DNA from: an uncultured bacterium
GTDB taxonomy: Bacteria > Muiribacteriota > Ozemobacteria > Ozemobacterales > Ozemobacteraceae
Assembly (NCBI GenBank): GCA_964613435.1
Contig: CAZTHA010000001.1
Span: forward strand, 1-43,436
Direction: 5' to 3'
Length of the DNA: 43,436 nt
The notes beneath the pieces are model-generated. The model was not told where the DNA came from. It searched no databases and saw only the letters and a list, made by a program, of their open reading frames with translations. Shown here piece by piece: positions 6,648 to 27,151 of this stretch. Made by a program: the position numbers and the translations under genes. Within the stretch, counting starts at the first letter, position 1. Each line of letters starts with the position of its first letter.

Positions 6648-6672
6648 AACAGAGTTGCAAAAGGAGAAAAAC

Positions 6673-7905
6673 ATGGTTTCACCCTCGGTAGTGCAGAATA
6701 TTGTCTTTAATAATGCTGATCCAAATGAACCGAGAAGTATAAATCTCTACTTCGATCATTATAAGGGAGAACCTATCTATCGGGTAGTGGCCTATCTCAA
6801 CAATTCAGGCTGCGAATGGTCGGTTAAGACCGGTGGCTGTACCATGTGCGGCACGAAAAATTCCCGCCTCGGCCGAAAAATTTCCGATGCCGAATTTTCA
6901 AATCAATTCGCGCTGATCAGAAAGTATGTAACTCAGTTCAATGCCCAGCTCGATGTTCCGGTAAAATCTTTGCATGTTTATAATGACGGTTTTTTCTTCA
7001 ACGACAACGAAATTTCGCCGGAATCGAGAGAGCAGATTTTTGCCATGGCTACCGATCTGAAAATGCAAAAGCTTGTTGTTGAAACCAACGGAATCGATAT
7101 CGTTAAAGATGACCGGAACAACGACTACCTGGGTAAAGCGGTCAAGCGTCTGGGCGAGACTGAGTTCGAGATAACTCTGGGAATCGAATCGACCAATCCG
7201 CTGATTCGTGCTCTTTACAATAAGCCGGACAGTTTTGAGGATATGCAAAAAAGCCTTGATATCATTCGCAGCAAAGGCGCGACGCTAAAAGGTTATGTTC
7301 TGGTCAAGGGACCGATGTTAACCGAGGCCGAGGCTTATGCCGATTGTGTGGAGACGATCAGGAATCTTGAGTGCTGGAGTGCTGGAAAGCGTTTCAGAGT
7401 CGAGTTTCAACCCGTGTGTCATCTGCCCAATACTTTGCACGAATACCTGATGCAATTGGATCATGCCGATCCATATTTCTGGGAACCACCTTTGTTGAGT
7501 ACGCTTTTTCGGATTCTCGCCAATTTTCCGGAAATGGGCGAAGATCTCTACACCGCTCTTTTCGCACGCATCGATCGGGATTCGCCCTGGGATTTCTGGG
7601 TAAATCGACCTCATGATGACCCGGAAACAACCTACAAACTCTATCTGAAACTTGTCGACCATTACCTTTATCGTCGCCACGAGTCGGTTACCTCGGCTCT
7701 GGAAATAGCCCATGAAGATTTGTGGTTGAAAAGGTGTGAAAGAAAAATAGAGCAATCCCTTGAGGAAAGAGTTGCCATGGTTAAAAAGCTTCTTGAACTG
7801 AGTCGAAAGAATCGGGTTCATTTAAGTGATTATTTAAAAAATAATCTTGCCAATGAAGGTAACTTCTGGGAACGGTGCAGCCGGCATCTCGACAGTCTTA
7901 AATGA
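6673..7905 (+). CDS. Radical SAM enzyme of the Elp3-like / TIGR01210 (RaSEA-like) type with C-x8-C-x2-C motif
   Basis: NNSGCEWSVKTGGCTMCGTKN (Cys codons 6811, 6838, 6847) matches the GCxW....GGCxMCG pattern I recall for TIGR01210-family radical SAM proteins. GIESTNPLIRALYNK resembles the Elp3-type core. Start chosen at ATG 6673 behind AAGGAG (6661-6666); the track start 6556 would overlap the upstream gene by 92 nt. Confidence 0.6.
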   Translation: MVSPSVVQNIVFNNADPNEPRSINLYFDHYKGEPIYRVVAYLNNSGCEWSVKTGGCTMCGTKNSRLGRKISDAEFSNQFALIRKYVTQFNAQLDVPVKSLHVYNDGFFFNDNEISPESREQIFAMATDLKMQKLVVETNGIDIVKDDRNNDYLGKAVKRLGETEFEITLGIESTNPLIRALYNKPDSFEDMQKSLDIIRSKGATLKGYVLVKGPMLTEAEAYADCVETIRNLECWSAGKRFRVEFQPVCHLPNTLHEYLMQLDHADPYFWEPPLLSTLFRILANFPEMGEDLYTALFARIDRDSPWDFWVNRPHDDPETTYKLYLKLVDHYLYRRHESVTSALEIAHEDLWLKRCERKIEQSLEERVAMVKKLLELSRKNRVHLSDYLKNNLANEGNFWERCSRHLDSLK

Positions 7906-9320
7906 TTTCACAACCTGATATTTTGTTGATTGCTTTGCCGCTGCTTTGGAGCGAGAGCAATCTTCCCGACATGAAGCAGCCGCTCAATCTGCTTTATCTG
8001 GCCAGCTGGCTCAATGCGCGCGGGTTGCGGGCGCAGGTCCTTGACGCCGCTTGTGAAAAGCTTTCCTTGCAAAATGTTTTGCGGCATGTTCAGCAAAGAG
8101 GGCCCAGATTTGTCGGGGTTTCATTTTATCAGGCGACCCGCGATACGACCCTGGAACTATGCCGTGAAATTCGCAGAGTAATGCCGCATGTGTGGATAGT
8201 TGGCGGCGGTCCGCTGGCCACAACTTCAGCTGAGAGTTTGCTTGAAAATGGTCTGTTGGATTTCGTCGTCATCGGCGAGGGTGAGCTCAGCCTCGAGGAG
8301 CTTTTGCGCAGCGATTTACCGACCACCAGGCAGGCGAATGTCGATAGTTCTTTAGTGCATGACATTGCTGGTATCGCATTTCGCCAGGCTGATCGGCCAA
8401 TTTTTACCGCTGAGCGTGAGCCGATCTCTGAGCTTGATAGCCTTCCCTATCTTGATTTTGAACTGATAAACATTCATCGCTATTTTGCTTATCATGCTTC
8501 CATCGAAATGTCCGACTGGCTTTTTTTGACCACTTCGCGTGGCTGTAATGCGCGTTGTGTTTTTTGTGCAACCCCAGTGCTCTGGCCGAAGGGCATGCGG
8601 CGTCAATCAGCTAAAAGAGTACTCGATGAAATTCTTTTTCAGCGCCAACGCTATCCGACTTCGCAGTTTGGTTTTATGGATGATTCTTTCTTTTCCGACA
8701 AAAAATGGTTACATGACTTTTGTGACGGTATAAGACCGATGCGGGTCAAATACTGCTGCATCGGTCGTGCCGACCATCTCAGCGAAAAGGATGTGGCGGC
8801 TCTGGCATCGAGTGGTTGCATATATGTGGCCATGGGCATTGAAACCGGGAATCAACTTCGGCAGCGTTCATTAAAAAAGAACTTAAACCTGTCGCGGGTT
8901 AAAAAATCGGTTAAATTGCTCCATGAGTATGGAATTTTCAGCAAGGGCTTTTTCATGCTTGGCTTTCCCGATGAAACCGCCCAGGATATGCTCGAAACTA
9001 TCAATTTTGCCGTTGAGCTCAAGGCTTTGGGTATGGGAGAGTTCAGCTTTTTTCCGGTGTCGATTTACCCGGGTACCGAACTGGCCGAAAAGTTCTCGCA
9101 AAATTTTTACGTTTCGAAAATATATCGACATCATAGCGGATTCAACGATTATGCCGAAGAAAGAATGCGGCGTTATGCCAACATTCCTGGTGCCAACGTA
9201 AATTATATCTTTAACAGTGTTCAGATTGTTAACATTGTTAGATTTGCCTATCGGCAGGTTGAATCGGGCAGGCCCGCCAGCCTCGAAAACCTTGTTGCGG
9301 CAGCTGAAATAGTTGATTAA
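7902..9320 (+). CDS. Class B (cobalamin-binding domain) radical SAM enzyme, paralog 2
   Basis: Same architecture as 5259-6647: QPLNLLYLASWLNARG...VGVSFYQ...IVGGGPLAT...FVVIGEGELSL. Cluster motif CNARCVFC (nt 8544-8567). ATGA start/stop overlap with the upstream gene (7902-7905). Confidence 0.85.
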   Translation: MISQPDILLIALPLLWSESNLPDMKQPLNLLYLASWLNARGLRAQVLDAACEKLSLQNVLRHVQQRGPRFVGVSFYQATRDTTLELCREIRRVMPHVWIVGGGPLATTSAESLLENGLLDFVVIGEGELSLEELLRSDLPTTRQANVDSSLVHDIAGIAFRQADRPIFTAEREPISELDSLPYLDFELINIHRYFAYHASIEMSDWLFLTTSRGCNARCVFCATPVLWPKGMRRQSAKRVLDEILFQRQRYPTSQFGFMDDSFFSDKKWLHDFCDGIRPMRVKYCCIGRADHLSEKDVAALASSGCIYVAMGIETGNQLRQRSLKKNLNLSRVKKSVKLLHEYGIFSKGFFMLGFPDETAQDMLETINFAVELKALGMGEFSFFPVSIYPGTELAEKFSQNFYVSKIYRHHSGFNDYAEERMRRYANIPGANVNYIFNSVQIVNIVRFAYRQVESGRPASLENLVAAAEIVD

Positions 9321-9322
9321 AT

Positions 9323-11002
9323 CTATTCGACTGATTCAGATGCTTTTAAGATTTCATTGGTTCTGGCTATGGCAGCATTGAGATTTGGGTTGACGTTTTC
9401 TTTGCCAATTCGCTCGACAAACCCTGATTTGGTTAAAACCCGCATTGGTTGGGGCTGAACTCCTGAAAGCACCAGTTTCGGCCCACCGGAAAGCTGGTTG
9501 TTTAACAGGCTTTCAAGAACGCGCAGTCCGGTTGCATCGAGGGAACCGACGTTGCGCATTCGCAGAATCATAACTTTCGGTGTTGTAGTGAAGCCGGCCA
9601 GCATCGAGGTAAATTTGTGTGCCGCGCCAAAGAAGAACGGACCATTTACTTCATAAACCATAACCCCTTCAGGAAGTCCCGAAAGGGCAGCGGCATCGGC
9701 GGCGCAAATACGATCGGCAGTTGCTTCGTCGGGGGCCAGAGACTGAACTTCAGCCAGGTCGACCATTCTTTTCATGAACAAAACTGCGGCAAGAACTATT
9801 CCAAGCTGTATTGCCACCGTGAGATCGATCAGGACGGTAAAAGCGAATGTACAAAGAAGAACGCTGGCATCGCTTTTAGTCGTTCCCTGCAAAATTCTTT
9901 TGAAAAGGTGAATTTCGCTCATGTTGTAGGAAACGACCAGCAGTATTCCTGCCAGCACTGCCATCGGCACCAGACTGGCGAGGTTTCCTGCCGCCAGAAG
10001 AATGATCAACAAAGTGACGGCGTGAATCAATCCGGCAAAAGGTGACCTGCCACCGTTTTTAATGTTGGTTGCGGTTCTGGCAATGGCTCCAGTGGCCGGT
10101 ATTCCCAGAAAGAGAGGCGAAACGATGTTTGCTACGCCCTGAGCTACAAGTTCAGCATTTGAACGATGATGGCGGCCGGTCATGCCGTCGGCAACAACCG
10201 CCGAAAGAAGGCTTTCAATGGCGGCCAGCAAAGCTATGGAGATTGCCGGAGAGATCAGGTCTGGTAGAACTTTCCAATCTATTGACGGAAGTTGGGGCAT
10301 TGGCAGGGAACCGGGAATTGAACCAAATCGACTGCCGATAGTTTCAACCGGCAAATCAAATGCTTTTACGGCGGCAGTGACGAGAACCAAAGCGACAACT
10401 GAACCTGGAATTCGCGGGAAAAGCCTTGGAACAGCGAGGATGATGAAAATCGTCGCCAGAGTTATGCCAGTTGCCCAGGGATTGAAGGTTCCGATGGTCT
10501 CGGCATAGGCGGATATTTTGTGCAGGAATTCTGAGGGAACCGAAGTCATTTGCAGTCCGAGGGCGTCGCGAATCTGTCCAGACGCGATTACAACCGCAAT
10601 GCCGCTGGTGAAGCCGACCGTAACCGGGTAGGGAATGAATTGAATGATCGAGCCAAGTCTGGCAAAGCCAAGAATTATCAAGATCAAACCAGCAATCATT
10701 GTGGCAACGGCCAGACCCTCGTAACCAAATTTACTGACGATTTCAAAGACCAGGACGATGAAAGCCCCGGTTGGGCCGCCGATTTGAACTCTGCTGCCAC
10801 TAAGCAACGAAATTATAAAGCCGGCGATAATGGCGGTATAAAGTCCCTGTTCGGGTTTTACGCCTGAGGCAATGGCAAAGGCGATAGCCAGTGGCAAGGC
10901 GACAATGCCAACGACGATGCCGGCGAGAAGATCTTTGAAAAATTGGCTGCGGTCGTAGCCTTCACGTAAGACGGTGATCAACTTGGGTTCGAGCGAGTTC
11001 AT
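9323..11002 (-). CDS. SulP-family anion permease with C-terminal STAS domain
   Basis: FKDLLAGIVVGIVALPLAIAFAIASGVKPEQGLYTAIIAGFIISLLSGSRVQIGGPTGAF is a typical SulP N-terminal core. C-terminal VMILRMRNVGSLDATGLRVLESL is STAS-like. Start set at ATG 11002 (MNSLEPK); the track start is 11068. Confidence 0.85.
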   Translation of the reverse strand: MNSLEPKLITVLREGYDRSQFFKDLLAGIVVGIVALPLAIAFAIASGVKPEQGLYTAIIAGFIISLLSGSRVQIGGPTGAFIVLVFEIVSKFGYEGLAVATMIAGLILIILGFARLGSIIQFIPYPVTVGFTSGIAVVIASGQIRDALGLQMTSVPSEFLHKISAYAETIGTFNPWATGITLATIFIILAVPRLFPRIPGSVVALVLVTAAVKAFDLPVETIGSRFGSIPGSLPMPQLPSIDWKVLPDLISPAISIALLAAIESLLSAVVADGMTGRHHRSNAELVAQGVANIVSPLFLGIPATGAIARTATNIKNGGRSPFAGLIHAVTLLIILLAAGNLASLVPMAVLAGILLVVSYNMSEIHLFKRILQGTTKSDASVLLCTFAFTVLIDLTVAIQLGIVLAAVLFMKRMVDLAEVQSLAPDEATADRICAADAAALSGLPEGVMVYEVNGPFFFGAAHKFTSMLAGFTTTPKVMILRMRNVGSLDATGLRVLESLLNNQLSGGPKLVLSGVQPQPMRVLTKSGFVERIGKENVNPNLNAAIARTNEILKASESVE

Positions 11003-11268
11003 AATTATTCCTGCAGATGAAAAACTTAAATAATTCGGTAAGGTATGGGCTGGGAATTCTATTCCCATAGCAGCTTTCTGTCAAAATCAGGGTTTTTTCG
11101 ATAGAGGCGATATTACAAGAAAATACTACCCATAGCAGCGGCAAAGACCTTTTCTGTTTATTTGCTGAAAAACCCCTGTTTTTTTGCGGATTTTCGTGAA
11201 AATTGATTTGTTTTACGTTTCGACATTTCATATTGATTGGCAATTCTGGAAGGCGTAGAATCAAGATA

Positions 11269-12216
11269 ATGTCAGAAGAATCGTCACTTTTTCCGCTTGG
11301 TTTACCTGATCGGGAGCAGCCTGAATTCTTTGCCCGGCTCCTCTGGTTCGGCCAATTCATCGAAGAGAATTGCCGGCGTAATTGCCAATTTGATTTGAAT
11401 AATTGGCCCAACCCGGTTTGGCAAGCACTGGCCAGAAAACTATTCCTTGGCCTGGAGGACTTTTCAAAAACAAAACCCGAGCCTGGGCAGGTTGTCATCT
11501 TACAATGGTATAACTCCGGCATTCTCGTTAAAACTCCTGAGCAGGTGCTTGGCTTTGATTTGGTGCCAATTCCCCGTTATTACTGCTGGCCTGATGAAAT
11601 GGGTTTGACCGGCCTTCTGGCTGAAGTTATCGATGTGCTTTTCGTTACCCATAATCATGCTGATCACTTCGATTCCGAACTGATCAAGGAATGTAATAGA
11701 TTGAATCGGCCTGTATTCATGCATCCGCAAGCAGTGCCTGCCCATTTAAGCGAAATCGGCAAATTGCCAGATCAAACTTCGATCAGAATTGGTCAGACTC
11801 GGGTAAAAGCTCATCATGGGCGCCATGTCTGGCGAAGCCTTGCCGAAGAGGTCGCGACGAGTGGTTTTGAGGTTGAGCTTGCCGGCGGGTTTCGTTTTGT
11901 TTTCTGTGGAGATCTTGATTACACCGTGGGTTTGACAAATGTGACTGCAGAACCGGACGTTTTATTCATAACCTGGCGCAATCCTGGACCGGCATTTGAA
12001 GATGGTCACCCAGAACAAAGAGGTAACACCGTCGATGCAGTTAACATTGCCATAGAGCAGGTGAAGCCACGCATGATCGTCCTTGAACATTATGCTGAAC
12101 TTGATCATGTCTATCATGGGTTTTCGGCGAGTTACGAATTGGCCTTGCAGCTTATTCGAAGCCTGCCGGTAAAAACCGAGATCCTGTTCTGGGGCGACAA
12201 ATTAGCGCTTAGCTGA
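11269..12216 (+). CDS. Metallo-beta-lactamase-fold hydrolase
   Basis: HxHxDH motif in LFVTHNHADHFD, with later His/Asp residues (KAHHGRH, CGDLDY). Start set at ATG 11269 (MSEESS). Confidence 0.65.
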   Translation: MSEESSLFPLGLPDREQPEFFARLLWFGQFIEENCRRNCQFDLNNWPNPVWQALARKLFLGLEDFSKTKPEPGQVVILQWYNSGILVKTPEQVLGFDLVPIPRYYCWPDEMGLTGLLAEVIDVLFVTHNHADHFDSELIKECNRLNRPVFMHPQAVPAHLSEIGKLPDQTSIRIGQTRVKAHHGRHVWRSLAEEVATSGFEVELAGGFRFVFCGDLDYTVGLTNVTAEPDVLFITWRNPGPAFEDGHPEQRGNTVDAVNIAIEQVKPRMIVLEHYAELDHVYHGFSASYELALQLIRSLPVKTEILFWGDKLALS

Positions 12217-12217
12217 T

Positions 12218-13117
12218 TTAGTTGATCTTTTTCAGTTCGTTCATCAGCTTGATGACTGCGATTTCTTTGGCTTTGGCTTCTATCTCGACGGTTATTTCAA
12301 GGTCTTTCCAGCAGTCGGGAAAATCGGCCGGATCGATAAAATCATGGTGTCGGTGTGGTTTCGCCCCTTGCCAGCCTTCAAGAGGGCTTGAAAGATGAAA
12401 CATCGGTTCCCGGTTCCATGTTTTCAGCGCCTTTTTCGTTGCCTGTTCTATGCTCAAGCCGTCAGTGAGGCAGCGGTGGTGATGAACATCGTATACCAGG
12501 GGAATACTCAGCTGCCGACAAAGAGGCAAGAGTTCTTCGGGGCTGTAGACTTTATCGTCATTTTCAAGGGTAAGCCTGGTTTTCGCTCTTTTTGAAAGGA
12601 GCTGAAAATTTTCAGCAAATCTTTGCAGGGCGGTCTTTTTGTCACCGTATGCGCCGCCGCCATGAATGTTGATGACATCTGCGCCGGTGAGTTCGGCAAT
12701 TTCAGCCTGATACTCAATTTCGGCAATCGAAGATTTTACGACATCAGGGTTCGGCGAGTTCAGCACGACAAACTGGTCTGGATGCAAAGATGCCCGCAAA
12801 GCATTTTCCTGCAAAAAATCCCCGCAGTTTTTAAAGATACTTACAATTTCGTCGCCATCGGGTAGGTCGTTGAAATCATAAGATATTTGCGGATGGGTTT
12901 TAAGCGGCAGAATCTGGCTGACGATGCGAAAGCAACCGATGTTGTTGGCGAGGCAGAATTCAAAAGCCCTAAGCAAGGCTCTGGCATTGGCCAGGCAAAG
13001 GGTTGAAAGCTTTTTCAGCTGCTCCTGTCTGCTAAGAGTCAGCAAATATTTGGCAGTCGTGGTCGCGAACTTAATTGGCTGATCTTTAAAGATGCAGCAA
13101 AGACCGAATTTGATCAT
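12218..13117 (-). CDS. uvdE: UV damage endonuclease UvdE
   Basis: KFGLCCIF start, VINIHGGGAYGDKKTAL, RLTLENDD and VYDVHHHRC follow the conserved UvdE TIM-barrel metal-site blocks. Confidence 0.8.
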   Translation of the reverse strand: MIKFGLCCIFKDQPIKFATTTAKYLLTLSRQEQLKKLSTLCLANARALLRAFEFCLANNIGCFRIVSQILPLKTHPQISYDFNDLPDGDEIVSIFKNCGDFLQENALRASLHPDQFVVLNSPNPDVVKSSIAEIEYQAEIAELTGADVINIHGGGAYGDKKTALQRFAENFQLLSKRAKTRLTLENDDKVYSPEELLPLCRQLSIPLVYDVHHHRCLTDGLSIEQATKKALKTWNREPMFHLSSPLEGWQGAKPHRHHDFIDPADFPDCWKDLEITVEIEAKAKEIAVIKLMNELKKIN

Positions 13118-15546
13118 TTTTCAGGTTTAATCTCGCTTTTCATGATCGAGCTGACCGACTGTTTGAAACTTTCGTCCATGGTTCTGATGTGAACGTCATT
13201 TTGCGGGAAAGGTATTTCGACGTTGTTTTCCCTGAATTTGCGATCAATTTCTAGATTGATTTCGTTGCGCACTTTAAGCATGTTGTCAAGGTCGGATACG
13301 TAGACTCTAAGCTCGAAATCAAGAGAACTGTTGCCGAAATTCATGAATAGAATCTGCGGTTCGGGATTTTTCATGACATACTGGTTTGCCTGGGCGATAT
13401 CTTTCAGTATCGAGATCACCAGTGGCACATCGGAACCGTAAGCCACGCCTACCGGAAGAATGACTCTGGTCTGACGGTCGGAAAGGGTCCAGTTGGTTAC
13501 TGTCGATGAAACCAGATCACTGTTGGGAACGATCATTTCTGATTTGTCGAAGGCTTGAACGACGGTTGCCCGCAAGCCAAGATTTTTTATGGTTCCCCAG
13601 GTGCCGTTGATCTGAACGACGTCACCAATTTTGATAGATCGCTCAAAAAGAAGTATCAGGCCACTGGCGAAATTGTTGACGATATTCTGCAAACCGAAAC
13701 CGATACCGATACCAAAAGCACCCATGAGAACAGCAAGACTTGAAAGACCTATGCCGAGAGTGGAAAGAGCTATAACTGCGCCGATGATGACGAAGGCATA
13801 ATTGATGAGCCGGTTGATGGATATGCCGACCCCGGCCTCGACATTTTTGCGCGGGTAAACTTCATCATCGAGAATGCGTTGAATCAGCCATGAACAGAAC
13901 ATGCTTGCATACCAGAGAAAAATGGCTGTGGCGATAATGCCGAGGGTGATTCTTTCACCCTGAAGATTTATTCCCAGATTTAAAACGCCGGCAATGCCGT
14001 CCTGAAAAGAATCTTTTATTCCCCAGACGGTTTGTAGTCCTGCCAGGGCCATGAAAGCCGACAAAATGTCGACGAGCATTTTCATGCGGTTGATTATCAT
14101 GGCTGCATTATTTCTGACAATTTTGCTCTGGCTGACAAAGCGATTGTCGATTATTGCTTCGGCAAGTCCGCGCAAGATCAGGTTGGCTATCCAGATAATA
14201 AGCAGGAAAAACACGCTTTTGATAGCAACTTCAAGCAGATGATTGGCCAGACCGGCAAACCCGGCAGCCTGAGCCAGAAATACGATCAACATGGTTAAGC
14301 CGCCAGTTTTTACAGCAAGAATGAACCAGATCGATGAATTCTGCATTCGATTGATCCTTGCCCGCCAGAAGCAGATGATTGCCCCAAGCAGACCCACGCC
14401 GGCGACGTAAAGTCGGAAAATCGGCGAAGGCAGGTTTATCAGATAGCAAAGCTGTGAGGTCAAAAATAGTGCTGCTAACAGGTAGATCAGTCGTCGGCGC
14501 CATGGGGTTTCGATGACGCTGGCTACGAGACGCGATCCGGCAATAGCCAGCAATGCCCACATGAATACTCTGACAATATTGGGTAAATCTTCAAATAATG
14601 GATAAAATGCGGCAACTCCAGCCACTATTGCCGCAGAAAAGCGTCGTTCAATGAGAAAACCGAGGCCCAGCTTGCGAGCCTTTTCGATGGGAATGCTGCC
14701 AAATAGCCAGATGAAGAAAAGAACTCCGAGAAACTGCAAACCTAACACCCATCCCTGTGATGAGTAGAAATCAGTTTGCGGGAGTTTCAAGCTGGCGATT
14801 CCGACCCAGAATTCCTGCCACTGCGACTTGTCGAATTGTTTTAGAAACGATGGAGTAAACATCGCCGGTCGAGATCGGCGAAAAAGGTCTTTGCGCATTC
14901 CGGAAATGATCGAATCAATTTCGGCGATGAATTTTTGATGGTCTGAGTTAAGTTCAAGAGCTTTTTTCTGAATTCCCACCAATGGTGATTCGATGCCCTC
15001 AAGCAACTTCTGAGCTTTCTGGATTTTTTTGCCAGCATCTTTAAAAATCGTTTTAAGGGCGTCGTTGTCGGCTGCTTGTGCTTGCTGCAGATTGCTCCAG
15101 GAGCTCTTTTGTGCTTCCCAGGTTTGTCTGAGGGTTTCGATGGCTTTGATATTGCCGGTAATTTTTTCCTGAAGCTTATTGATCCCCTGGTGGCTTTCTC
15201 TGGCTGCAGCCCTGATTTCAGATATTTTGTCAAAACTGTAAACGCCTGAGGTTTTCAATTCGTTGAGATTGCTTCGGTGGGAGTTGAACCGGTTTCTGGC
15301 GTTTGTCACTTCGGTGTCGAGGGTGGTAGAAGCGACCAGTAGCCTGATTTTCTCTGGGAGGTTGCTGTATTCTTCTTCGAGGGCAGCAGCTTTGGGAGCA
15401 ACCGAAGAAACCGAACTGTCTTCGACAACGGTTGAACTGGCCAGTAGGGCTCCGGCAGAGGCATTGGCCGGTTCCTGGGCATAAAGGCAAACATTAACCA
15501 ACAAGGAAAGACAAATAACTGCCAGAAAATTTTTGAAATTTCTCAT
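13114..15546 (-). CDS. Large MscS-family (MscK-like) mechanosensitive channel with N-terminal secreted coiled-coil domain
   Basis: Signal peptide, about 250 aa of coiled-coil-like sequence, then multiple TM helices. MscS core GIGFGLQNIVNNFASGLILLFERSIKIGDVVQINGTWGTIKNLGLRATVV...IVPNSDLVSSTVTNWT. ATG 15546; the track start 15555 is a TTG. Confidence 0.85.
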   Translation of the reverse strand: MRNFKNFLAVICLSLLVNVCLYAQEPANASAGALLASSTVVEDSSVSSVAPKAAALEEEYSNLPEKIRLLVASTTLDTEVTNARNRFNSHRSNLNELKTSGVYSFDKISEIRAAARESHQGINKLQEKITGNIKAIETLRQTWEAQKSSWSNLQQAQAADNDALKTIFKDAGKKIQKAQKLLEGIESPLVGIQKKALELNSDHQKFIAEIDSIISGMRKDLFRRSRPAMFTPSFLKQFDKSQWQEFWVGIASLKLPQTDFYSSQGWVLGLQFLGVLFFIWLFGSIPIEKARKLGLGFLIERRFSAAIVAGVAAFYPLFEDLPNIVRVFMWALLAIAGSRLVASVIETPWRRRLIYLLAALFLTSQLCYLINLPSPIFRLYVAGVGLLGAIICFWRARINRMQNSSIWFILAVKTGGLTMLIVFLAQAAGFAGLANHLLEVAIKSVFFLLIIWIANLILRGLAEAIIDNRFVSQSKIVRNNAAMIINRMKMLVDILSAFMALAGLQTVWGIKDSFQDGIAGVLNLGINLQGERITLGIIATAIFLWYASMFCSWLIQRILDDEVYPRKNVEAGVGISINRLINYAFVIIGAVIALSTLGIGLSSLAVLMGAFGIGIGFGLQNIVNNFASGLILLFERSIKIGDVVQINGTWGTIKNLGLRATVVQAFDKSEMIVPNSDLVSSTVTNWTLSDRQTRVILPVGVAYGSDVPLVISILKDIAQANQYVMKNPEPQILFMNFGNSSLDFELRVYVSDLDNMLKVRNEINLEIDRKFRENNVEIPFPQNDVHIRTMDESFKQSVSSIMKSEIKPEK

Positions 15547-22326: not shown

Positions 22327-24387
22327 ATGAAATACAATTCAGGTCTGACAAAAATACTCGCGGGTTCATTATTGCTCTTGCTGGTATTTTTCCTGGTAAT
22401 AATTGTCTGCGAAGAAGCCGATGCACGAGCCGGGGGTGGCCATCGCTACTCGGGCGGCAGCAGGTCAAGTTCGAGTTCAAGCTCGGGTTATCGAAGTAGT
22501 GGTAGCAGCAGCTGGGGCAGTTCTTCCCGAAGTAGAGGCAGTAGTGGCGGAGGAGCCCCTGCTGACCCAGTTGTTATTCTTTTTTTTGTCGTCATTTTCA
22601 TTGTAATTGCTGCGCTTAAGCTTTGGATTGCCAACTCTGACAATGTGCCGAGCATACTCAAGATGTTTTTGTCCGTTGATCGTGAGATGGTTTCAACTAT
22701 TCGTGAGGCCAGTCAGATTCAGCCCTCGCGGATGAAATCCGTTTCTCTCGATGCTTTGAAAGCCAGAGATCCCAACTTCAATGAAAGGGTTTTTGCTGAA
22801 CGGGCGAAAAAAGCTTTTGCGGTTATTCAGCAGGCATGGTCTGCCCGTGATTTGGTAAAGGCTGAGGCGTTTTTGTCAGATGGCATTTATGAGCAGTTCA
22901 ATATACAGCTTTCGGAATTGCGCGAAGCTGGCCTGATCGATCATATGGAAGGTCTTAATGTCCGCAATGCTTATGCGGTAGGATTTCAAACAGATAAAAA
23001 CTTCGATGTCATCCATCTGCGAATCGATGCCAGCGCAATAAACTATCGCAAAGATGAGAAAACCGGCAAAGTTGTCGAAGGCAGTCGCTCACCCGAACCA
23101 TTTTCCGAAGTCTGGTCATTTATGAGAAAACCAGGTGCCAAGACCGGTAATAAGGGTGGTTTGCTCGAAGGGCAATGCCCTAATTGCGGCAATCCCATTA
23201 AAATTGGGCGATTGTCAAAATGTGATGTCTGTAATGCCCTGTTACGCTCTGGTGAATATGACTGGGTTCTTGTCAGTATCACCCAGGCCTGTGAATGGGG
23301 CGTTCGCCCGCAGCCAGCGGTGCCGGGCATGGATGAATTGGTGAAAAGTGACCCCGGCTTCAACATGCAGCACCTTAAAGAGCGTGCTTCAGTTATTTTC
23401 TGGCGAAAAATCGAGACTGAAAGAACCGGTAAAATTGATTTTCTGCGTAAAGTTGCTCTAGATGAATTCTCGGAAAATGAAAGCAACTGGTTAAAAGCAG
23501 ACAAATCAGGCGCCCGTCGTTTTTACACTTCCTGTGCCGTTGGGATTATTAATCTTCTGGGAATAGAAGCCGGCGAGGACAAGGACAGGGCAATGGTCGA
23601 GGTTGTCTGGAGCGGAATTCCTTCGACTCAGACAGCCGGAAAAATTCAGCCCTCCTCGGGTGGGCCAATCAATCAAAAGAATGTTTTCATTCTTGTCCGA
23701 AAACATGGCGCTCAGACGAAACTTGAATCGACTCTGGCAAGTGCGCATTGTCCGTCATGTGGTGCTCCCGAACAAACTGGTACCGAAAACGAATGTCAGT
23801 ATTGTGGCGCGGTCATGAATGATGGCAAGGTTGAATGGGTTCTTGAGGCTGTTTGTGATAGAACTGACGATCGGGTAGCCGGAATGCTTATCAGAGCAAA
23901 AAACGCACGCAAAGAAAGCCCTGCTCCTGTTGGGGCAACTTCACCTGCTTCGGCAAAAGTTGAAGCAAAAGAAATCGAAACGGTTATTTCCGGGGTCGAA
24001 CTTATGCGTTACACTATTGCGATGATGATGGCTGACGGCAAGATCGACGCCCAAGAACTGGAAATGATAAAGAGTCTGGCTCAGCGGGCAGATCTTAACA
24101 ACAGCAAACTGCAGCCGATCGTCGACGAATTGAAGCGGGCACCGGATCCTGTGCAATATGCGATCGATATGAGCCTTAACGAGCCCGATCAGGGGCTGTT
24201 GCGACAATTGGCGCGGATTGCCCTGGCGGATGGAAATGTCAGTCCTCAGGAATCGCAGATGCTCAAGAATATCGGTATCAAGATCGGGTTTGCCGCCTAT
24301 GATATCGATCAGCTTATCAAACAGGAAAAGAAGCAGATGTTCCAGGAAGCACAGGAGCTATTGCGTCGTCAGAAAAATCCGAGTTGA
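22327..24387 (+). CDS. Membrane protein with Ser/Gly/Arg-rich linker, two Tim44-like domain + zinc-ribbon modules and a C-terminal TerB-like domain
   Basis: Two hydrophobic helices flank GGGHRYSGGSRSSSSSSSGYRSSGSSSWGSSSRSRGSSGGG. Tim44-like pattern DPNFNERVFAERAKKAFAVIQQAWSARD...EVWSFMRKPG, then CPNCGNPIKIGRLSKCDVCNA. Second copy DPGFNMQHLKERASVIFWRKIE...VFILVRKHG, then CPSCGAPEQTGTENECQYCGA. TerB-like repeats AMMMADGKIDAQELEMIKSL and RIALADGNVSPQESQMLKNI. Confidence 0.6.
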   Translation: MKYNSGLTKILAGSLLLLLVFFLVIIVCEEADARAGGGHRYSGGSRSSSSSSSGYRSSGSSSWGSSSRSRGSSGGGAPADPVVILFFVVIFIVIAALKLWIANSDNVPSILKMFLSVDREMVSTIREASQIQPSRMKSVSLDALKARDPNFNERVFAERAKKAFAVIQQAWSARDLVKAEAFLSDGIYEQFNIQLSELREAGLIDHMEGLNVRNAYAVGFQTDKNFDVIHLRIDASAINYRKDEKTGKVVEGSRSPEPFSEVWSFMRKPGAKTGNKGGLLEGQCPNCGNPIKIGRLSKCDVCNALLRSGEYDWVLVSITQACEWGVRPQPAVPGMDELVKSDPGFNMQHLKERASVIFWRKIETERTGKIDFLRKVALDEFSENESNWLKADKSGARRFYTSCAVGIINLLGIEAGEDKDRAMVEVVWSGIPSTQTAGKIQPSSGGPINQKNVFILVRKHGAQTKLESTLASAHCPSCGAPEQTGTENECQYCGAVMNDGKVEWVLEAVCDRTDDRVAGMLIRAKNARKESPAPVGATSPASAKVEAKEIETVISGVELMRYTIAMMMADGKIDAQELEMIKSLAQRADLNNSKLQPIVDELKRAPDPVQYAIDMSLNEPDQGLLRQLARIALADGNVSPQESQMLKNIGIKIGFAAYDIDQLIKQEKKQMFQEAQELLRRQKNPS

Positions 24388-24426: not shown

Positions 24427-24441
24427 GAACAACTGATTCGT

Positions 24442-24490
24442 AAAAAAAAGAAACGCTTAAGGCATTTATTTATGCTTTAAGCGTTTTTTT
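24442..24490. terminator. Bidirectional rho-independent terminator closing the G3E/ABC/DUF364 operon
   Basis: AAACGCTTAAGGCAT (24451-24465) pairs with ATGCTTTAAGCGTTT (24472-24486), 15 bp with one G-U. Flanked by an A8 run upstream and a T7 run downstream. The minus-strand stop of the DUF364 gene lies in the loop region. Confidence 0.75.
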
Positions 24491-25240
24491 GAATGCGACC
24501 TTTTGTCCGGTAGAAAAAATTTTGCCGTTTTCGCTGCCTTTGATTATACGCAATGCTCTTTTACAGTCTTTGACGACGAAACCGGAAAGATCATCGACGC
24601 CGTAATCAAAAAGAGCAGGCGCAAGAGTGGTTGAGGGTCCGACGATCGTTCGTTTCAAAGCTTTTTTGGATAATTGCAAGTATCTGGGTAAGGTTTTGTC
24701 GATCAGACTTGAACTGCCGATGTAGACGAGGTCACTTTCCGGCAAGAGATAATCGGTTGCAGAAACAGGGAAATCACCTTCCTGAGGAATTTCACCGCTG
24801 ATGATACTCATTTCGCAGATCGGTTCAAGCAGGGTTTGAATATAAGGAAAATGGCCAATAACAGTGACTTTTTTCCCGCGGACTTCGTGCTGACCCATGA
24901 TAAAGGGATCGTAAACCCGGTCTTCTACGTGAAGTGAGTCATGAATCTGAACCCCGTTTTCGCTGGCAATTTTAATGTTATTGAAGTAAGCATTAATGGC
25001 GGCTAGACCAATGGACGCCTCGTAAAAGTTCCAGGCTTTTACGCATTTGGCAAGTTCTTTGAGCTTCATGCCGACCGGGTATTCGGCCAATACCGGTTTA
25101 CGATAATCATAAATGCGATGCTCGGCAATGCCAAGACCATTATTACTACGCACACATGAATAATGAGTTCCTTTGATTACTTCTTCAACTGTCCAGTCTT
25201 CAGGAATTTCATCGATAAGTCGGTCGTAAATTTCCCACAT
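24470..25240 (-). CDS. DUF4213/DUF364 protein (putative heavy-metal chelation, Rossmann-like domain)
   Basis: IYDRLIDEIPEDWTVEEVIKGTHYSCVRSNNGLGIAE and KKVTVIGHFPYIQTLL...LLPESDLVYIGSSSLIDKTLPRYL...IVGPSTTLAPALFDYGVDDLSGFVV fit my recollection of the DUF4213+DUF364 consensus. Start ATG 25240, 2 nt after the upstream TGA; the track start 25354 would overlap by 112 nt. Confidence 0.65.
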   Translation of the reverse strand: MWEIYDRLIDEIPEDWTVEEVIKGTHYSCVRSNNGLGIAEHRIYDYRKPVLAEYPVGMKLKELAKCVKAWNFYEASIGLAAINAYFNNIKIASENGVQIHDSLHVEDRVYDPFIMGQHEVRGKKVTVIGHFPYIQTLLEPICEMSIISGEIPQEGDFPVSATDYLLPESDLVYIGSSSLIDKTLPRYLQLSKKALKRTIVGPSTTLAPALFDYGVDDLSGFVVKDCKRALRIIKGSENGKIFSTGQKVAFKKTLKA

Positions 25241-25242
25241 GC

Positions 25243-26277
25243 TCAAAGTTTTCCTTTGTCTTGAAAGATGTTCATGTCGATTTGCCCGCCTTGCCTTAAA
25301 GCTTTTCTCAGGCGTGAAAAGGTTGAATCCAGTTGTTGTATCGTGTCGAGACAATTTTTTTCATTTGCCGAGGTAACGATAATCTGGCTGACTCCGCCAT
25401 TCTTGATGACGATGCGTTTATCGGCGCTCAGGGCTAGAAGTGGATCATGAGTGGAAATGAAAACTATTTTTTCTTTTCGGGCAAGAATTTCAATCGCTTG
25501 CCGACGATCTATTCCTGCATTTTCAATCTCATCGATCAATACGATTGGTGATGCGCTCATGAACGCGGTGTCGGCAATCATCAAAGCTCTTGATTGACCA
25601 CCGCTGAGTTGGGTTAACTTGGTGCTGAGCTCAAACTTCTCACCTGCCATGCTGTTGGCACAACTAAAGCATCTGTCGATAGCGTCTTCGATGTCATCGA
25701 TGAAGCGGCTTCCTGCATGCATTTCAAGAAATTCTTTTACGGTGAGATCCATTACAAAATTCATGTTCTGGGAAAGTTGGGCAACCAGTTTTCCTTCCAT
25801 GTCAAAGCGTTGCTGCTCTGAGATGCTCTCGCCATCAATAAGTATTTTTCTTCCTGTCGGCGTATCGATGTCAGCCAGGCATTCAATATCGGCCAATAAT
25901 CTGCTTTTACCTGAACCGGTCGGTCCAACGATGCTGATCGTTTCGCCAATAGAAGCCGACCATTCGGCTATTTCCGGCTCACCATTCTTGTTTTTTCCGC
26001 CAATAACAGTAAGTGATGCAATTGTAGATGCGGCTGTTCCGCCCCGGGCGAAGGTTTCAAGAAAAAGGCAGAATTCCCGAAAAATCATATCCTTATCGAG
26101 GCCAAAATCTTCGAGAGTTTCCCTGCTTGTTTTTTCAAGAGCACGGCTAAGGGTTAAATTGATGTCGATGTCGTTGATGCGAAGATTGTGGAAAAAACCA
26201 CGACAAAATGGATGTTCATCAAATATCTGTTTTAAAGGTTGTGAAATTGCCATTTCCAAAAAATTGGGCTGACTCAT
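25243..26277 (-). CDS. Soluble ABC-type ATPase with about 110-aa N-terminal extension and no cognate permease
   Basis: Walker A IVGPTGSGKSRLL, Q-loop region, signature LSGGQSRALMIA, Walker B PIVLIDEIENAGID, H-loop FISTHD. ATGA overlap with the upstream GTPase gene (26274-26277). Confidence 0.8.
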   Translation of the reverse strand: MSQPNFLEMAISQPLKQIFDEHPFCRGFFHNLRINDIDINLTLSRALEKTSRETLEDFGLDKDMIFREFCLFLETFARGGTAASTIASLTVIGGKNKNGEPEIAEWSASIGETISIVGPTGSGKSRLLADIECLADIDTPTGRKILIDGESISEQQRFDMEGKLVAQLSQNMNFVMDLTVKEFLEMHAGSRFIDDIEDAIDRCFSCANSMAGEKFELSTKLTQLSGGQSRALMIADTAFMSASPIVLIDEIENAGIDRRQAIEILARKEKIVFISTHDPLLALSADKRIVIKNGGVSQIIVTSANEKNCLDTIQQLDSTFSRLRKALRQGGQIDMNIFQDKGKL

Positions 26278-26966
26278 TTATTCTTGAACTCCATTTTTTT
26301 CATGGTGCCCATCTGGTATTCTGACCCAATTCGCATTTCTCCGGTGCAATATGAGCAGACCGCCGCCGGGGTGGTAAATCGCAGCTTCATTTCATGAAGA
26401 CTGGAGATATCTTTGGCGGTCATCAGATAACGTGCGAGCAATGAGGCTCCTTGTCCGGTAATTCCATTCACGAAGAAAATTCTGGCCTGGGTGTTGACCT
26501 GCTTGATATTGAAGGCAAAAACCTCCCTTTCTGCCTGAGATACAATGTCTCCCTTGGTGACAACGACAATGTCAGCCATTTTCAGCATTGGTCCTATTTT
26601 TCGGGGGGTATTTATTCCGGCAAGATTATCGATGACGCAAACCGAGAGGATCCCCTTAATATAGGGTGAACAGCGGTTGCATAAACCGGCACTTTCTGAA
26701 ATAAGCATTTTGAAACCAGATTGAACGCCCCATTTAACTGCCTCCTCAATGTTGCTGACGAAAAAATGATCGGGGCATAATTTGCCGGAGAATCCGGTAA
26801 CATTTGCAATTCCCTTTTCATCGTATCTAATGTTGTCAAAAGAAGTCAGACAGTCGAATTTGACGACGCCGATGTCGGTAATCGCGATATTCATGGCGGC
26901 AATCGCCTGTAAAATCACCGAGGTCTTGCCAGATGATGGTGGGCCTGCAAAAGTAATCAGTTGCAT
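26274..26966 (-). CDS. G3E-family P-loop GTPase (HypB/UreG/CooC/CobW-like metallochaperone)
   Basis: Walker A FAGPPSSGKTS. Cys/His motif GKLCPDHFF at the position of the UreG CPH and HypB CH motifs. Switch/Walker B LISESAGLCNRCSP (compare HypB ENVGNLVCP). NKxD-like VVTKGDIV. C-terminal CSYCTG. Confidence 0.65.
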   Translation of the reverse strand: MQLITFAGPPSSGKTSVILQAIAAMNIAITDIGVVKFDCLTSFDNIRYDEKGIANVTGFSGKLCPDHFFVSNIEEAVKWGVQSGFKMLISESAGLCNRCSPYIKGILSVCVIDNLAGINTPRKIGPMLKMADIVVVTKGDIVSQAEREVFAFNIKQVNTQARIFFVNGITGQGASLLARYLMTAKDISSLHEMKLRFTTPAAVCSYCTGEMRIGSEYQMGTMKKMEFKNK

Positions 26967-27151
26967 TTCAATTAATCCTTATCATTAAGCGGAAAATTAA
27001 CAGTTACAAATTTTAAAGTCAATCTGGCCGCAAGATTTTGCCGGAATTTTGTGAAAATTTCCCTTATTGAAAGTCGAAGGAAAATTTAACTGTTTTCGTG
27101 TTTGTTAAGCAGTTGTATAATTGTATTAAAGGTTTTCGACAAGGAAAAAGT

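Follow-up and report, generated by a model that had tools for sequence, protein, structure and literature searches.

A G3E GTPase–ABC ATPase pair of anaerobes as a candidate nucleotide-driven module for molybdenum and tungsten trafficking

Introduction

The G3E GTPases HypB, which acts with HypA, and UreG insert nickel into [NiFe]-hydrogenase and urease, respectively. The metals served by G3E metallochaperones are, to our knowledge, Ni, Co/B12, Zn and Fe, without any case for Mo or W; nor do we know of any nucleotide-driven chaperone engaged in the handling of these two metals. A nucleotide-dependent metallochaperone role is also ascribed to the COG0523/CobW-type members, and the whole G3E class is defined by the replacement of DxxG by ExxG in the G3/Walker B motif (Chem Rev 2024, PMC11672702). 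Two DUF364 proteins are relevant to the locus described below. The crystallised Dhaf4260 (PDB 3L5O) was described in 2010, with no mention of GTPase or ATPase partners and with the prediction that a flavin- or pterin-like ligand occupies its pocket (PMC2954201). The sole characterised DUF364 enzyme, Orf5 from a Streptomyces natural-product cluster, is a methyl-azetidine-carboxylate synthase that cyclises a SAM derivative (PMC12930334).

Here we analyse three adjacent genes, G1, G2 and G3, from a stretch of 43,436 nucleotides of an uncultured bacterium of the Ozemobacteraceae (contig CAZTHA010000001.1; hereafter the window). An earlier note on this DNA had taken their products for a so far uncharacterised machine, driven by NTP, that acts on a metal or cofactor, and had named no metal. 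That general idea fits the evidence presented below, while the candidate metal is now suggested by related loci, in which riboswitches, mod/tup, moeA, AOR and nifHDK genes point to Mo/W. On balance, we lean towards the view that the three gene products form a soluble module that traffics metal at the expense of nucleotides and belongs to the Mo/W economy of anaerobes.

Results

Operon organisation and flanking signals

G1, G2 and G3 are carried on the minus strand and constitute a single operon (Table 1), as the earlier note had read from the overlap and the gap at the two gene junctions and from the promoter region and terminator that flank the genes. In most related loci G1 and G2 likewise overlap by 4 nt or are only a few nucleotides apart. 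The open reading frame of G3, taken mechanically, extends to a TTG at 25354; every ortholog as well as Dhaf4260 starts with MWEIYD. G1, G2 and G3 are real genes and not chance open reading frames; homologs number in the thousands, at 57–99% identity.

Table 1. Coordinates of the operon, its signals and the sequence motifs of its products (window numbering)
Feature	Positions	Strand	Remarks
G1	26274-26966	-	230 aa; predicted G3E-class GTPase
G2	25243-26277	-	344 aa; predicted soluble ABC-type ATPase
G3	24470-25240	-	256 aa; start = ATG at 25240
ATGA overlap, G1 stop/G2 start	26274-26277	-	read in sequence; translational coupling
2-nt gap G2/G3	25241-25242	-	read in sequence
Bidirectional intrinsic terminator	24441-24486	.	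common to converging gene 22327-24387; hairpin at 24451-24486
Upstream non-coding region	26967-27097	-	presumed promoter; AAGGA ribosome-binding site
G1 P-loop G8-T15, GPPSSGKT	26922-26945	-	G8, G13 and K14 invariant in 24 diverse members
G1 Cys64-Pro-Asp-His67, putative metal-ligand motif	26766-26777	-	C64 invariant; P65/D66 at least 90% conserved (24 members)
G1 G3/switch II, E91-S-A-G94 (ExxG) and L-C96-N-R-C99-S-P101	26664-26696	-	family alignment
G1 G4 motif T137-K-G-D140, TKxD variant of NKxD	26547-26558	-	aligned with HypB NKxD
G1 C-terminal pair C204-S-Y-C207	26346-26357	-	C204 invariant; C207 at least 90% conserved
G2 N-terminal helical domain, residues 1-85	26023-26277	-	all-helical in the AF2 model

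The terminator hairpin overlaps the G3 stop codon and lies between an A-run and a T-run. It has 14 pairs (15 bp in the earlier note), a dG of -15.7 kcal/mol and a z-score of -4.5; its stability was reached by none of 200 shuffles, and it was absent from the output of a simple consensus scan. The 185-nt promoter region of the earlier note holds if it is measured to the first ATG (27152) of the divergent open reading frame, but shrinks to 131 nt when the GTG at 27098 is taken as its start. No strong sigma-70 site was detected upstream of G1 by a simple consensus scan and no Moco riboswitch by our own Moco model. An Rfam scan of the entire window gave no family at or above its gathering score.

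The whole 43 kb encodes no permease, no substrate-binding protein and no metalloenzyme client, in agreement with the earlier note, and the window holds no Mo/W gene or riboswitch. A link of the operon to the B12 and radical-SAM genes of the window, raised earlier as speculation, has no support in the data: the distance to these genes exceeds 15 kb, and the 86 related loci show no recurrent radical-SAM family.

The GTPase G1

To judge by its sequence, G1 is a G3E GTPase, as proposed earlier, and belongs to a HypB/UreG-like subfamily of its own. It matches the Pfam cobW family (PF02492) with 35 bits, above the cut-off (20.7), and its E91-S-A-G94 is the ExxG of the class. The NCBIfam models place it outside both the HypB and UreG equivalogs (hypB TIGR00073, 46.6 bits, cut-off 121.2; ureG TIGR00101, 22.4 bits, cut-off 204.2), and PRK10463 scores likewise below its cut-off (19 versus 385 bits). 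The AF2 model of G1 (pLDDT 77.5) is predicted to adopt a HypB/UreG/MeaB-type fold: the best Foldseek matches were UreG 4HI0, HypB 2HF8/4LPS/2WSM and UreG 5XKT (E 1e-9 to 4e-8, TM 0.6–0.7), followed by IcmF, MeaB and SRP GTPases.

The CPDH motif (64–67), which the earlier note had set at the Ni-binding position of UreG and HypB, indeed aligns with the 'CH' metal ligands of HypB from M. jannaschii, and the switch II stretch aligns with the G3-loop cysteine of the HypB sequence ENVGNLICP. Within that stretch, E91 and C96 are invariant and G94, C99 and P101 at least 90% conserved in 24 diverse family members. The CNRC (96–99) and CSYC (204–207) pairs noticed previously are present and, like CPDH, invariant or nearly so family-wide, which amounts to five invariant or near-invariant cysteines per monomer; the alignment reveals no counterpart of CSYC in HypB and UreG. 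T137, K138 and D140 of the G4 motif are invariant in the close set, and distant members carry TRxD or THxD. The CPDH region has a low pLDDT, as is expected of a metal-dependent loop.

Ligands aligned with the Ni/Zn site of HypB, in a protein whose nearest folds are UreG and HypB, would also suit a HypB-like chaperone that supplies some metalloenzyme with Ni, Zn, Co or Fe as a divalent cation, with G2 and G3 as helpers and Mo/W genes as bystanders or merely co-regulated. An 80-aa HypA-like zinc ribbon following G2 in six related loci and the triad of C. estertheticum, adjoining a ZnuA/COG0523/DUF1980 zinc-type cluster, point the same way. We regard this explanation as unlikely, since G1 scores far below the HypB and UreG cut-offs and hydrogenase, urease, CODH, nik, cbi and hyp families do not recur among the neighbours in the 86 loci. 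Moreover, the Rfam scan of 56 loci brought up neither NiCo nor any other cation riboswitch, as against Moco RNAs leading three triad operons, and the window contains no hyp or hydrogenase gene.

The ABC ATPase G2 and the conserved core

G2 appears to be a catalytically complete ABC ATPase. Its match to Pfam ABC_tran (58.9 bits) covers residues 106–250, and Walker A GPTGSGKS (118–125), Q-loop LSQ (168–170), LSGGQ (224–228), Walker B LIDE (247–250) including the catalytic Glu, and H277 of the H-loop are all present and invariant in 35 homologs. The structural matches of the AF2 model (pLDDT 83) are ABC nucleotide-binding domains, and a fold search with the whole protein is dominated by this domain. 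As to the additional N-terminal domain reported earlier, about 100 residues precede ABC_tran and have no Pfam match at E < 0.01. This domain is probably DUF1858-like, with an hhalign probability of 74% (E 2.7e-5) against the DUF1858 domain of an alternative partner protein described below.

Relatives of G1 were counted in at least 587 species genomes of bacteria and archaea, mostly of anaerobic lineages; they span many bacterial phyla, methanogens and Bathyarchaeota. Neighbourhoods were surveyed in 86 related loci, of which 77 had room for a test of G2 and 68 had room on both sides. In 75 of the 77, G1 is followed immediately by G2, and the two are fused in P0122, P0124 and L046. The G1–G2 pair is the invariant core of the module, and it is this pair, not the triad presumed by the earlier note, that is conserved as a unit. 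The module is widespread in anaerobes and so far without a name; our literature search found no published description of it.

The database name of G2, 'ABC transporter ATP-binding protein', and its scores against many transporter ATPase models would fit the ATPase of a membrane ABC transporter with a permease encoded elsewhere, G1 and G3 being unrelated neighbours. We consider this extremely improbable: those scores are all far under the family cut-offs, the near-universal adjacency to G1 extends to fusions in several lineages, the FecCD, Mod and Tup importers adjoining the module in related loci each bring their own ATPase, and the extra N-terminal domain of G2 probably has a counterpart on a soluble partner protein. 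The earlier description of G2 as a soluble, complete and permease-less ATPase is upheld.

G3 and the exchangeable third partner

G3 carries DUF4213 (69 bits, residues 5–85) and DUF364 (108 bits, residues 111–249) according to Pfam, as recognised previously. A full-length match to Dhaf4260 (residues 1–252, E 4.6e-92) identifies it as the ortholog of this crystallised protein, and the triad of D. dehalogenans contains a DUF364 member about 90% identical to 3L5O. Other DUF364 members are only distantly related (25 bits to 3NPG).

Only in about one locus out of two does DUF364 act as third partner. Of the 68 loci that could be read on both sides, 33 contain DUF364 alone and 32 a cytoplasmic DUF1858-SBP_bac_6 protein alone, none has both and three have neither; one Acetobacterium genome carries both partner types in tandem. 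The ORF families found in at least five loci are parts of the module, antisense artefacts, parts of FecCD importers, SAM methyltransferases, NTPase_1 and Mo/N2-fixation genes, and no others. FecCD/Peripla_BP_2 importers, whose usual cargo is chelates or cofactors, stand beside the module in about 30 loci, SAM methyltransferases in about 24, and Riflebacteria loci have an additional TonB-dependent receptor with ExbBD.

This company, together with the SAM-cyclising activity of Orf5 (PMC12930334) and the flavin- or pterin-like ligand predicted for Dhaf4260 (PMC2954201), raises the question of whether the substrate of the module, instead of free metal, is a chelate or cofactor brought in from outside. 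In one version, FecCD/TonB systems would import a Mo/W-metallophore or a pterin/Moco precursor, DUF364 as a SAM- or pterin-binding enzyme would modify or dismantle the carrier together with the methyltransferase, and G1–G2 would extract the metal; in another, DUF364 would make a nicotianamine-like chelator from SAM. Both versions together seem improbable to us. Neither an exporter nor a further biosynthetic enzyme recurs, DUF364 is swapped in half of the loci for a binding-protein fold that is no enzyme, importer and methyltransferase are both missing from many loci including the window, and G3 is remote from other members of its family.

Molybdenum and tungsten context of related loci

The link of the window operon to Mo/W is one of homology and context, because the window itself lacks any Mo/W gene or riboswitch. 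In related loci, Moco RNA (RF01055) heads the operon NTPase-MT-PBP-FecCD-ABC-G1-G2-G3 in L054 (72.8 bits) and L062 (64.6 bits), and MT-FecCD-ABC-PBP-G1-G2-G3 in L045. In L020 it lies upstream of a divergent importer operon adjoining the module, and in L001 it flanks the module cluster. In L046, which combines the fused G1–G2 with DUF364, a divergent TupA-like gene (PBP_like_2) with permease and ATPase is followed by a P3-less 'Tuco-type' riboswitch and then by MoeB/ThiF, AOR and MoeA; the type is assigned by the P3 rule (PMC2408646). Moco RNA was thus seen in just 6 of the 86 loci searched, 56 of them with Rfam and all 86 with our own, weaker model. Of the four leader cases, three come from MAGs of Oscillospiraceae and are hence not independent. 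The Moco riboswitch literature that we searched does not name the module as a regulon member.

Genes of the surroundings point in the same direction. Twelve loci contain modA/modB or tup genes; nifH or nifDK is found in 10 (NifK 674 bits, cut-off 427), HTH_17-PBP_like regulators in seven, MoeA or MoCF genes in L017 and L026 (in the order DUF364-MoeA-NTPase) and AOR in L072. As a raw count, at least one Mo/W marker was present in 25 of the 86 loci. The binding proteins of the module-linked importer match MolA (HI_1472), a protein that binds molybdate/tungstate, with E ~1e-10. In M. maripaludis, a DUF364 gene lies within modABC and is cofit with nifH (bioRxiv 10.1101/2024.03.05.583561). The earlier note had weighed whether orthologs sit inside a maturation cluster that already explains them: such clusters do provide context, but their known functions cover none of the proteins of the module.

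Besides the lack of Mo/W genes in the window and the small number of loci with a Moco RNA, further observations count against the Mo/W reading. The cations Ni and Zn, and not oxyanions, are the known ligands of Cys/His sites of the HypB type. The FecCD/Peripla_BP_2 importers of about 30 loci belong to a kind that usually carries chelates or cofactors, and the TonB-dependent receptor of Riflebacteria would be superfluous for free molybdate. The SAM methyltransferases and NTPase_1 recur but have no place in the Mo/W model.

The nifHDK genes adjoining the module in 10 loci, the five conserved cysteines of G1 and the example of the Suf/SMS complex, which works with a soluble ABC ATPase, might be reconciled with a SufC-like ATPase and GTPase scaffold for a metal-sulfur cluster, either a Mo-Fe-S precursor for FeMo-co (cf. 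NifQ) or the Fe-S clusters of Mo/W enzymes. Such a role is in our view distinctly unlikely, as nif genes are missing from the surrounding 10 kb in most loci, neither a cysteine desulfurase nor a scaffold gene recurs, and Moco riboswitch control is better accounted for by a pterin cofactor pathway than by FeMo-co.

Discussion

Trafficking of Mo or W by a soluble module, the reading we favour, could proceed as follows. Importers (mod/tup or FecCD-type, in the case of the window's organism presumably encoded elsewhere in the genome) would take up Mo or W, and the third partner, here G3, would receive the metal, which would next be bound by a dimer of G1 at its Cys-rich site. Release may be gated by GTP hydrolysis in G1 and ATP-driven clamping of a G2 dimer, with cofactor synthesis as the target, likely MoeA (Moco/Wco), or the FeMo-co pathway in diazotrophs. 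The cargo might be an oxyanion, a thiolated metal, a chelate or a pterin-bound form.

A more specific proposal is put forward only tentatively, and it may well not hold: G1–G2 would be the first dedicated nucleotide-driven Mo/W metallochaperone, in which a HypB-like GTPase holds the metal by thiolates and an ABC clamp delivers it to MoeA (Moco/Wco) or FeMo-co synthesis, while the mutually exclusive partners, DUF364 and DUF1858-SBP_bac_6, might sort Mo from W or serve separate targets.

The module is a concrete candidate for the allocation of Mo/W after uptake, including the separation of both metals in anaerobes. It owes this status to its presence in at least 587 species genomes, Moco riboswitch control in some of them and, in others, a position between mod/tup transporters and MoeA, AOR or nifHDK. 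If the proposal is true, it would give a function to DUF364/Dhaf4260, a structure without one since 2010, and G1 would be the first G3E GTPase to work with an ABC ATPase.

Comparison with known systems

HypB and UreG share with G1 the predicted fold, the P-loop and ExxG, and a TKxD variant occupies the NKxD position in G1; with HypB, the Cys..His motif and a G3-loop Cys at metal-ligand positions are also common, and the zinc ribbon beside some G1–G2 pairs recalls HypA. However, identity to G1 is about 20%, the motif is CPDH instead of CH or CPH (CPH in UreG), and G1 adds a second G3-loop Cys and the C-terminal CxxC. It also has a near-universal ABC ATPase partner, no hyp/ure genes nearby and a context of Mo/W, not Ni. 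The COG0523/CobW proteins (CobW, ZigA/ZNG1, Nha3) have PF02492 in common with G1, which lacks the COG0523 C-terminal domain and is nearer to HypB/UreG in sequence and fold; YjiA scores just 27 bits against the G1 family profile.

SufC/SmsC resemble G2 as ABC ATPases without a membrane domain in a cofactor-assembly complex, and the Foldseek matches of G2 include the SMS complex 9H78, a precedent for the work of a soluble ABC ATPase in cofactor assembly. G2 shows no specific sequence relationship to them, carries the probably DUF1858-like N-domain and has a GTPase as its partner instead of SufB/D-type scaffolds. Dhaf4260 is the counterpart of G3 over its full length, and a congeneric, near-identical copy of it belongs to the same triad. 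Orf5, set beside G3 by description only, indicates that the DUF364 fold can bind SAM derivatives. MolBC-A (HI1470-72), ModABC/TupABC and the Moco riboswitch regulon are recurrent genomic partners or regulators of the module; the transporters among them are membrane uptake systems, whereas the module is cytoplasmic and permease-less.

The operon and its proteins

The three genes on the minus strand lie as the earlier note had described them: an ATGA joins the stop codon of the gene for a G3E-type GTPase (G1) to the start of the gene for a permease-less ABC ATPase (G2), which is followed after 2 nt by the gene for a DUF4213+DUF364 protein (G3). The mechanical reading frame of G3 extends 5' to a TTG, and MWEIYD is the start in all orthologs and in the crystallised homolog. 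The borders had been read as a 185-nt promoter region and a 15-bp bidirectional terminator. The first figure holds to the first ATG of the divergent reading frame and becomes 131 nt when counted to its GTG; the hairpin proved to have 14 pairs, folds at -15.7 kcal/mol (z = -4.5, with 0 of 200 shuffles equally stable) and, standing opposite a converging gene, fits the bidirectional role. That gene, which has this terminator in common with the triad, encodes a 686-aa protein that is rich in Ser and Gly at its N-terminus, has a TerB domain at its C-terminus and also contains a Tim44-like domain and CxxC pairs. The stretch upstream of G1 contains an AAGGA ribosome-binding site, no strong match in a scan with the sigma-70 consensus and no riboswitch according to Rfam or our own covariance model of the molybdenum cofactor (Moco) RNA. 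An alignment of six Riflebacteria-type loci revealed no common operator motif there; at most, two of the six may share a promoter.

Coordinates of the features discussed (window and related loci of other genomes)
Feature	Locus	Coordinates	Strand	Remarks
G1	window	26274-26966	minus	230 aa ORF
G2	window	25243-26277	minus	344 aa ORF
ATGA overlap	window	26274-26277		G1 stop/G2 start
G3	window	24470-25240	minus	256 aa counted from ATG at 25240
Hairpin	window	24451-24486		14 pairs, A-run and T-run at sides; downstream of triad
Converging gene	window	22327-24387		
Three tandem genes	window	5259-9320		about 450-470 aa
Two module systems in tandem	L013, Acetobacterium paludosum	3282-13731		
Moco riboswitch	L001, D. 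dehalogenans	13856-13987		
Methyltransferase	L001, D. dehalogenans	12523-13745		
Methyltransferase	L003	1122-1979		
Methyltransferase	L054	1668-3111		
TPP riboswitch	L048	12947-13056		class 2
TPP riboswitch	L042	2213-2309		class 2
TPP riboswitch	L072	5538-5636		class 2
Triad and zinc-type cluster	L004, Clostridium estertheticum	2992-9161		

The assignment of G1 to the G3E GTPases was borne out by its P-loop, ExxG motif (the G4 motif is a TKxD variant), fold and ligand positions. It exceeds the cut-off of Pfam cobW (35 bits against 20.7) and stays far under those of the NCBIfam models for HypB (46.6 against 121) and UreG (22 against 204). The closest structures to its AlphaFold2 model (pLDDT 77.5, pTM 0.81) are UreG (4HI0) and HypB (2HF8, 4LPS, 2WSM), with TM scores of 0.6-0.7 at about 20% identity. 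In a family profile alignment with M. jannaschii HypB the CPDH motif (C64..H67) falls on the "CH" ligands, as the earlier note had proposed, and C96/C99 on the G3-loop cysteine inside ExxG...CP; the nickel site of HpHypB consists of the CH sequence and the G3-loop cysteine (PMC11672702). Among 24 diverse members, G8, G13 and K14 of the P-loop, C64, P65, D66, E91, A93, G94, L95, C96, R98, C99, P101, D132, T137, C204 and C207 are invariant or at least 90% conserved. The profile scores, fold, ligand alignment and conservation together argue that G1 is a G3E GTPase with a HypB-type site and additional thiolates that forms a subfamily of its own, outside HypB and UreG, from which both the low family scores and a different genomic context set it apart. 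The subfamily is tight: a search among 1.8 billion proteins recovered no more than 405 representative clusters at an E of 1e-3 or better.

G2 is an ABC ATPase, though not demonstrably part of a transporter. Its motifs are complete and all invariant among 35 homologs, and its model (pLDDT 83) has the ABC fold. Its first ~85 residues form a helical domain in the model and have no Pfam match; hhalign related them to the DUF1858 domain of the alternative partner protein described below (probability 74%, E 2.7e-5); a whole-protein fold search was dominated by the ABC domain. G3 comprises DUF4213 and DUF364 in Pfam and, as a full-length ortholog of Dhaf4260 (PDB 3L5O, E 4.6e-92), is a bona fide member of that DUF364 subfamily.

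Distribution of the module and its alternative partners

When each species was represented by one genome, at least 587 genomes contained a relative of G1. The top matches for G1 and G2 are Riflebacteria/Ozemobacteraceae proteins, which makes an origin of the window in this group probable, and G1 homologs of 72-97% identity were found in Riflebacteria, Clostridium, Desulfitobacterium, Desulfosporosinus and others. The 80 loci retrieved for comparison, with the help of an alignment of 11 closer G1 sequences, encode proteins 58-82% identical to G1 of the window and represent Bacillota, Desulfobacterota, Bacteroidota, Verrucomicrobiota, Spirochaetes, Deferribacteres, Myxococcota, Dehalococcoidales and a few Gamma- and Betaproteobacteria, as well as the archaeal Methanomicrobiales, Methanosarcina and Bathyarchaeota. 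The archaeal proteins (loci L016, L021, L024, L028, L031-L033, L039 and L085) share 60-72% identity with the window's own G1, which is of the Riflebacteria type; such a figure is unusually high across domains and suggests lateral transfer under strong constraint.

The conserved unit is smaller than the triad put forward initially. By tblastn, 75 of the 77 loci with room have G2 directly after G1 and in the same orientation (one of the two exceptions is a 15-nt overlap), and the two are fused in the homologs P0122 (613 aa) and P0124 (509 aa) and in several Clostridia. This universal pairing and the fusions contradict the idea that G2 is the orphan ATPase of a transporter, which is scarcely credible. 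The DUF364 protein is the third partner in only 33 of the 68 loci with room on both sides (class 1); a DUF1858 + SBP_bac_6 protein of roughly 400 aa without a signal peptide is present in 32 (class 2), neither in 3, and both together in none. The near-constant G1-G2 arrangement beside a varying third gene points to a GTPase-ATPase pair as the invariant core, joined by one of two alternative partners, a DUF364 protein or a cytoplasmic protein of binding-protein fold. A structure search with the latter gave nothing useful (best E 0.02).

The two classes are not simply interchangeable, as one Acetobacterium paludosum locus carries both systems in tandem, back to back around one FecCD importer, in the orders ABC, G1, methyltransferase (MT), DUF1858-SBP_bac_6 for class 2 and G1, G2, DUF364, MT, NTPase for class 1. 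The DUF364 protein of the D. dehalogenans triad is about 90% identical to Dhaf4260, so the crystallised protein belongs to the module, a membership that its description in 2010 did not note (PMC2954201).

Genomic neighbourhoods and regulatory RNAs

Pfam searches of all large reading frames of the window found no transporter, molybdenum or tungsten (Mo/W) gene, methyltransferase or client enzyme, in agreement with the isolation of the triad described previously. In related loci the module is set within neighbourhoods of Mo/W uptake, biosynthesis of Moco or the tungsten cofactor, and Mo-nitrogenase. All reading frames within about 10 kb were clustered and the cluster representatives run against Pfam; every family present in at least 5 loci was a module part or an antisense artefact of one, or fell into the groups described below (ModA/ModB, nif, regulator and importer families, SAM methyltransferases, NTPase_1 and a HypA-like zinc ribbon). 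At least one Mo/W marker was found in 25 of 86 loci (a raw count). ModA/ModB-type transporter parts occur in 12 loci, NifH or NifDK in 10 (NifK 674 bits, cut-off 427) and an HTH_17-PBP_like regulator in 7, an architecture which we take to be that of the tungstate-responsive TunR family. FecCD and a binding protein of FecCD/ABC/Peripla_BP_2 importers are found together in 30 loci; the binding proteins (PBP) are closest to unliganded structural-genomics entries and also match MolA (HI_1472; E about 1e-10), reportedly the component of a type II importer that binds molybdate and tungstate. The gene orders include FecCD-ABC-PBP-DUF364-MoeA-NTPase_1 on a single strand (L026), a MoCF gene 5' of modABC-FecCD-ABC-PBP-G1-G2-G3 (L017) and c4-G1-G2-modABC-nifHDK plus a gene for aldehyde:ferredoxin oxidoreductase (AOR; L072). 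Independent publications are in line with this: in M. maripaludis, a DUF364 gene that lies within modABC is cofit with nifH (bioRxiv 10.1101/2024.03.05.583561), and transport of molybdate, tungstate and vanadium is among the STRING contexts of DUF364 (PMC2954201).

Regulatory RNAs are the sharpest evidence from the neighbourhoods, although a search of 86 related loci found them in only 6 (Rfam covered 56, our own weaker model all). The Moco RNA RF01055 leads NTPase_1-MT-PBP-FecCD-ABC-G1-G2-G3 in L054 (72.8 bits) and L062 (64.6 bits) and MT-FecCD-ABC-PBP-G1-G2-G3-NTPase in L045 (42.8 bits); it lies 5' of an importer divergent from G1 in L020 (66 bits) and just past the cluster in L001 (71 bits). 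Three of the four leader cases are related Oscillospiraceae MAGs. All five copies keep the P3 hairpin, and P3-containing RNAs are associated exclusively with Moco genes (Regulski et al., PMC2408646). In some genomes, a predicted riboswitch puts the module under Moco repression. The sixth RNA (L046), detected by our own model and then by Rfam (60.3 bits), lacks P3, as does the proposed tungsten-cofactor type (PMC2408646); there a fused G1-G2 with DUF364 diverges from TupA-like PBP_like_2, permease and ATPase genes, the riboswitch, and then MoeB/ThiF, AOR and MoeA.

The D. dehalogenans riboswitch stands 5' of a 101-aa DUF2325 gene, which hints that DUF2325 is also in the Moco regulon. The SBP_bac_6 family includes thiamine-binding proteins. 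TPP riboswitches were noted 0.2-7 kb from three class 2 loci, slightly above chance; they serve ordinary genes (thiC; thiD-permease-thiE; thiG-thiE) in separate operons, and a thiamine link was set aside. A cobalamin link was rejected, as the sole B12 riboswitch (L029) faces away from the importer. The tentative tie of the triad to the B12-binding radical SAM genes of the window was likewise abandoned, since these are more than 15 kb away and no radical SAM family recurs near the module elsewhere. Two of those three tandem genes encode B12-binding and radical SAM domains, with a weak radical SAM match in the middle one.

Proposed function

The core of the module consists of two soluble enzymes, an ATPase and a GTPase rich in metal ligands, and the earlier reading of an uncharacterised NTP-driven metal machine was right in spirit; the related loci now point to molybdenum or tungsten. 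We lean, with modest confidence, towards a role in Mo/W trafficking. The separate steps are much less certain: an imported Mo/W species might be captured by the third partner and the metal bound at the Cys/His site of a G1 dimer, and delivery to MoeA or FeMo-co synthesis might be gated by G1, through hydrolysis of GTP, together with a G2 dimer whose closure is driven by ATP. Against the Mo/W reading stands the window itself, which contains no Mo/W gene or riboswitch. It is also weakened by the fact that HypB-type sites are known for cations and not for oxyanions. A scaffold for a metal-sulfur cluster, of the NifQ or SufC kind, has a small chance of being the answer.

Class I SAM methyltransferases (four mutually unrelated sequence clusters, about 24 loci) and NTPase_1 proteins (13 loci) are not explained by the Mo/W reading. 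The two genes, the latter THEP1-like, are often paired, whichever the partner class and in bacteria as well as archaea; one of the methyltransferases weakly matches TehB, an oxyanion methyltransferase. That the cargo is a chelate or cofactor is suggested by the FecCD importers and, in Riflebacteria, by a TonB receptor. A chelate- or cofactor-processing or metallophore system would agree with these importers and with the SAM chemistry of the sole characterised DUF364 enzyme (PMC12930334); nevertheless, a binding protein replaces DUF364 in half of the loci, and we consider such a system unlikely.

Literature searches (DUF364, DUF1858, Dhaf4260, CobW/nitrogenase/molybdate, G3E/Moco, tungstate GTPase metallochaperone, TunR) found no description of the module, no G3E protein tied to Mo/W and nothing on the G1-G2 pair; no paper was found for PDB 9HRJ and related entries, and database names of the module proteins are generic only. 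We regard the module as a metallochaperone system that depends on nucleotides and is unprecedented in its ABC ATPase partner and, if the Mo/W reading is correct, in its metal.

In Clostridium estertheticum the triad adjoins a zinc-starvation-type cluster of ZnuA, ABC-3, two COG0523 GTPases (one fused to ArsP_1) and DUF1980. A chaperone that delivers Ni, Zn, Co or Fe to some client enzyme would account for the ligand homology of G1 and for a HypA-like partner; no such client or regulator is found among the neighbours, and the chances of this explanation are as low as those of chelate processing. The partner in question, a Cys-rich protein of 80 aa that has a zinc ribbon and weakly matches HypA, is encoded directly 3' of G2 in six loci (L060, L066, L069, L076, L082 and L084), all of class 2, and its arrangement with G1-G2 resembles the pairing of HypA with HypB.
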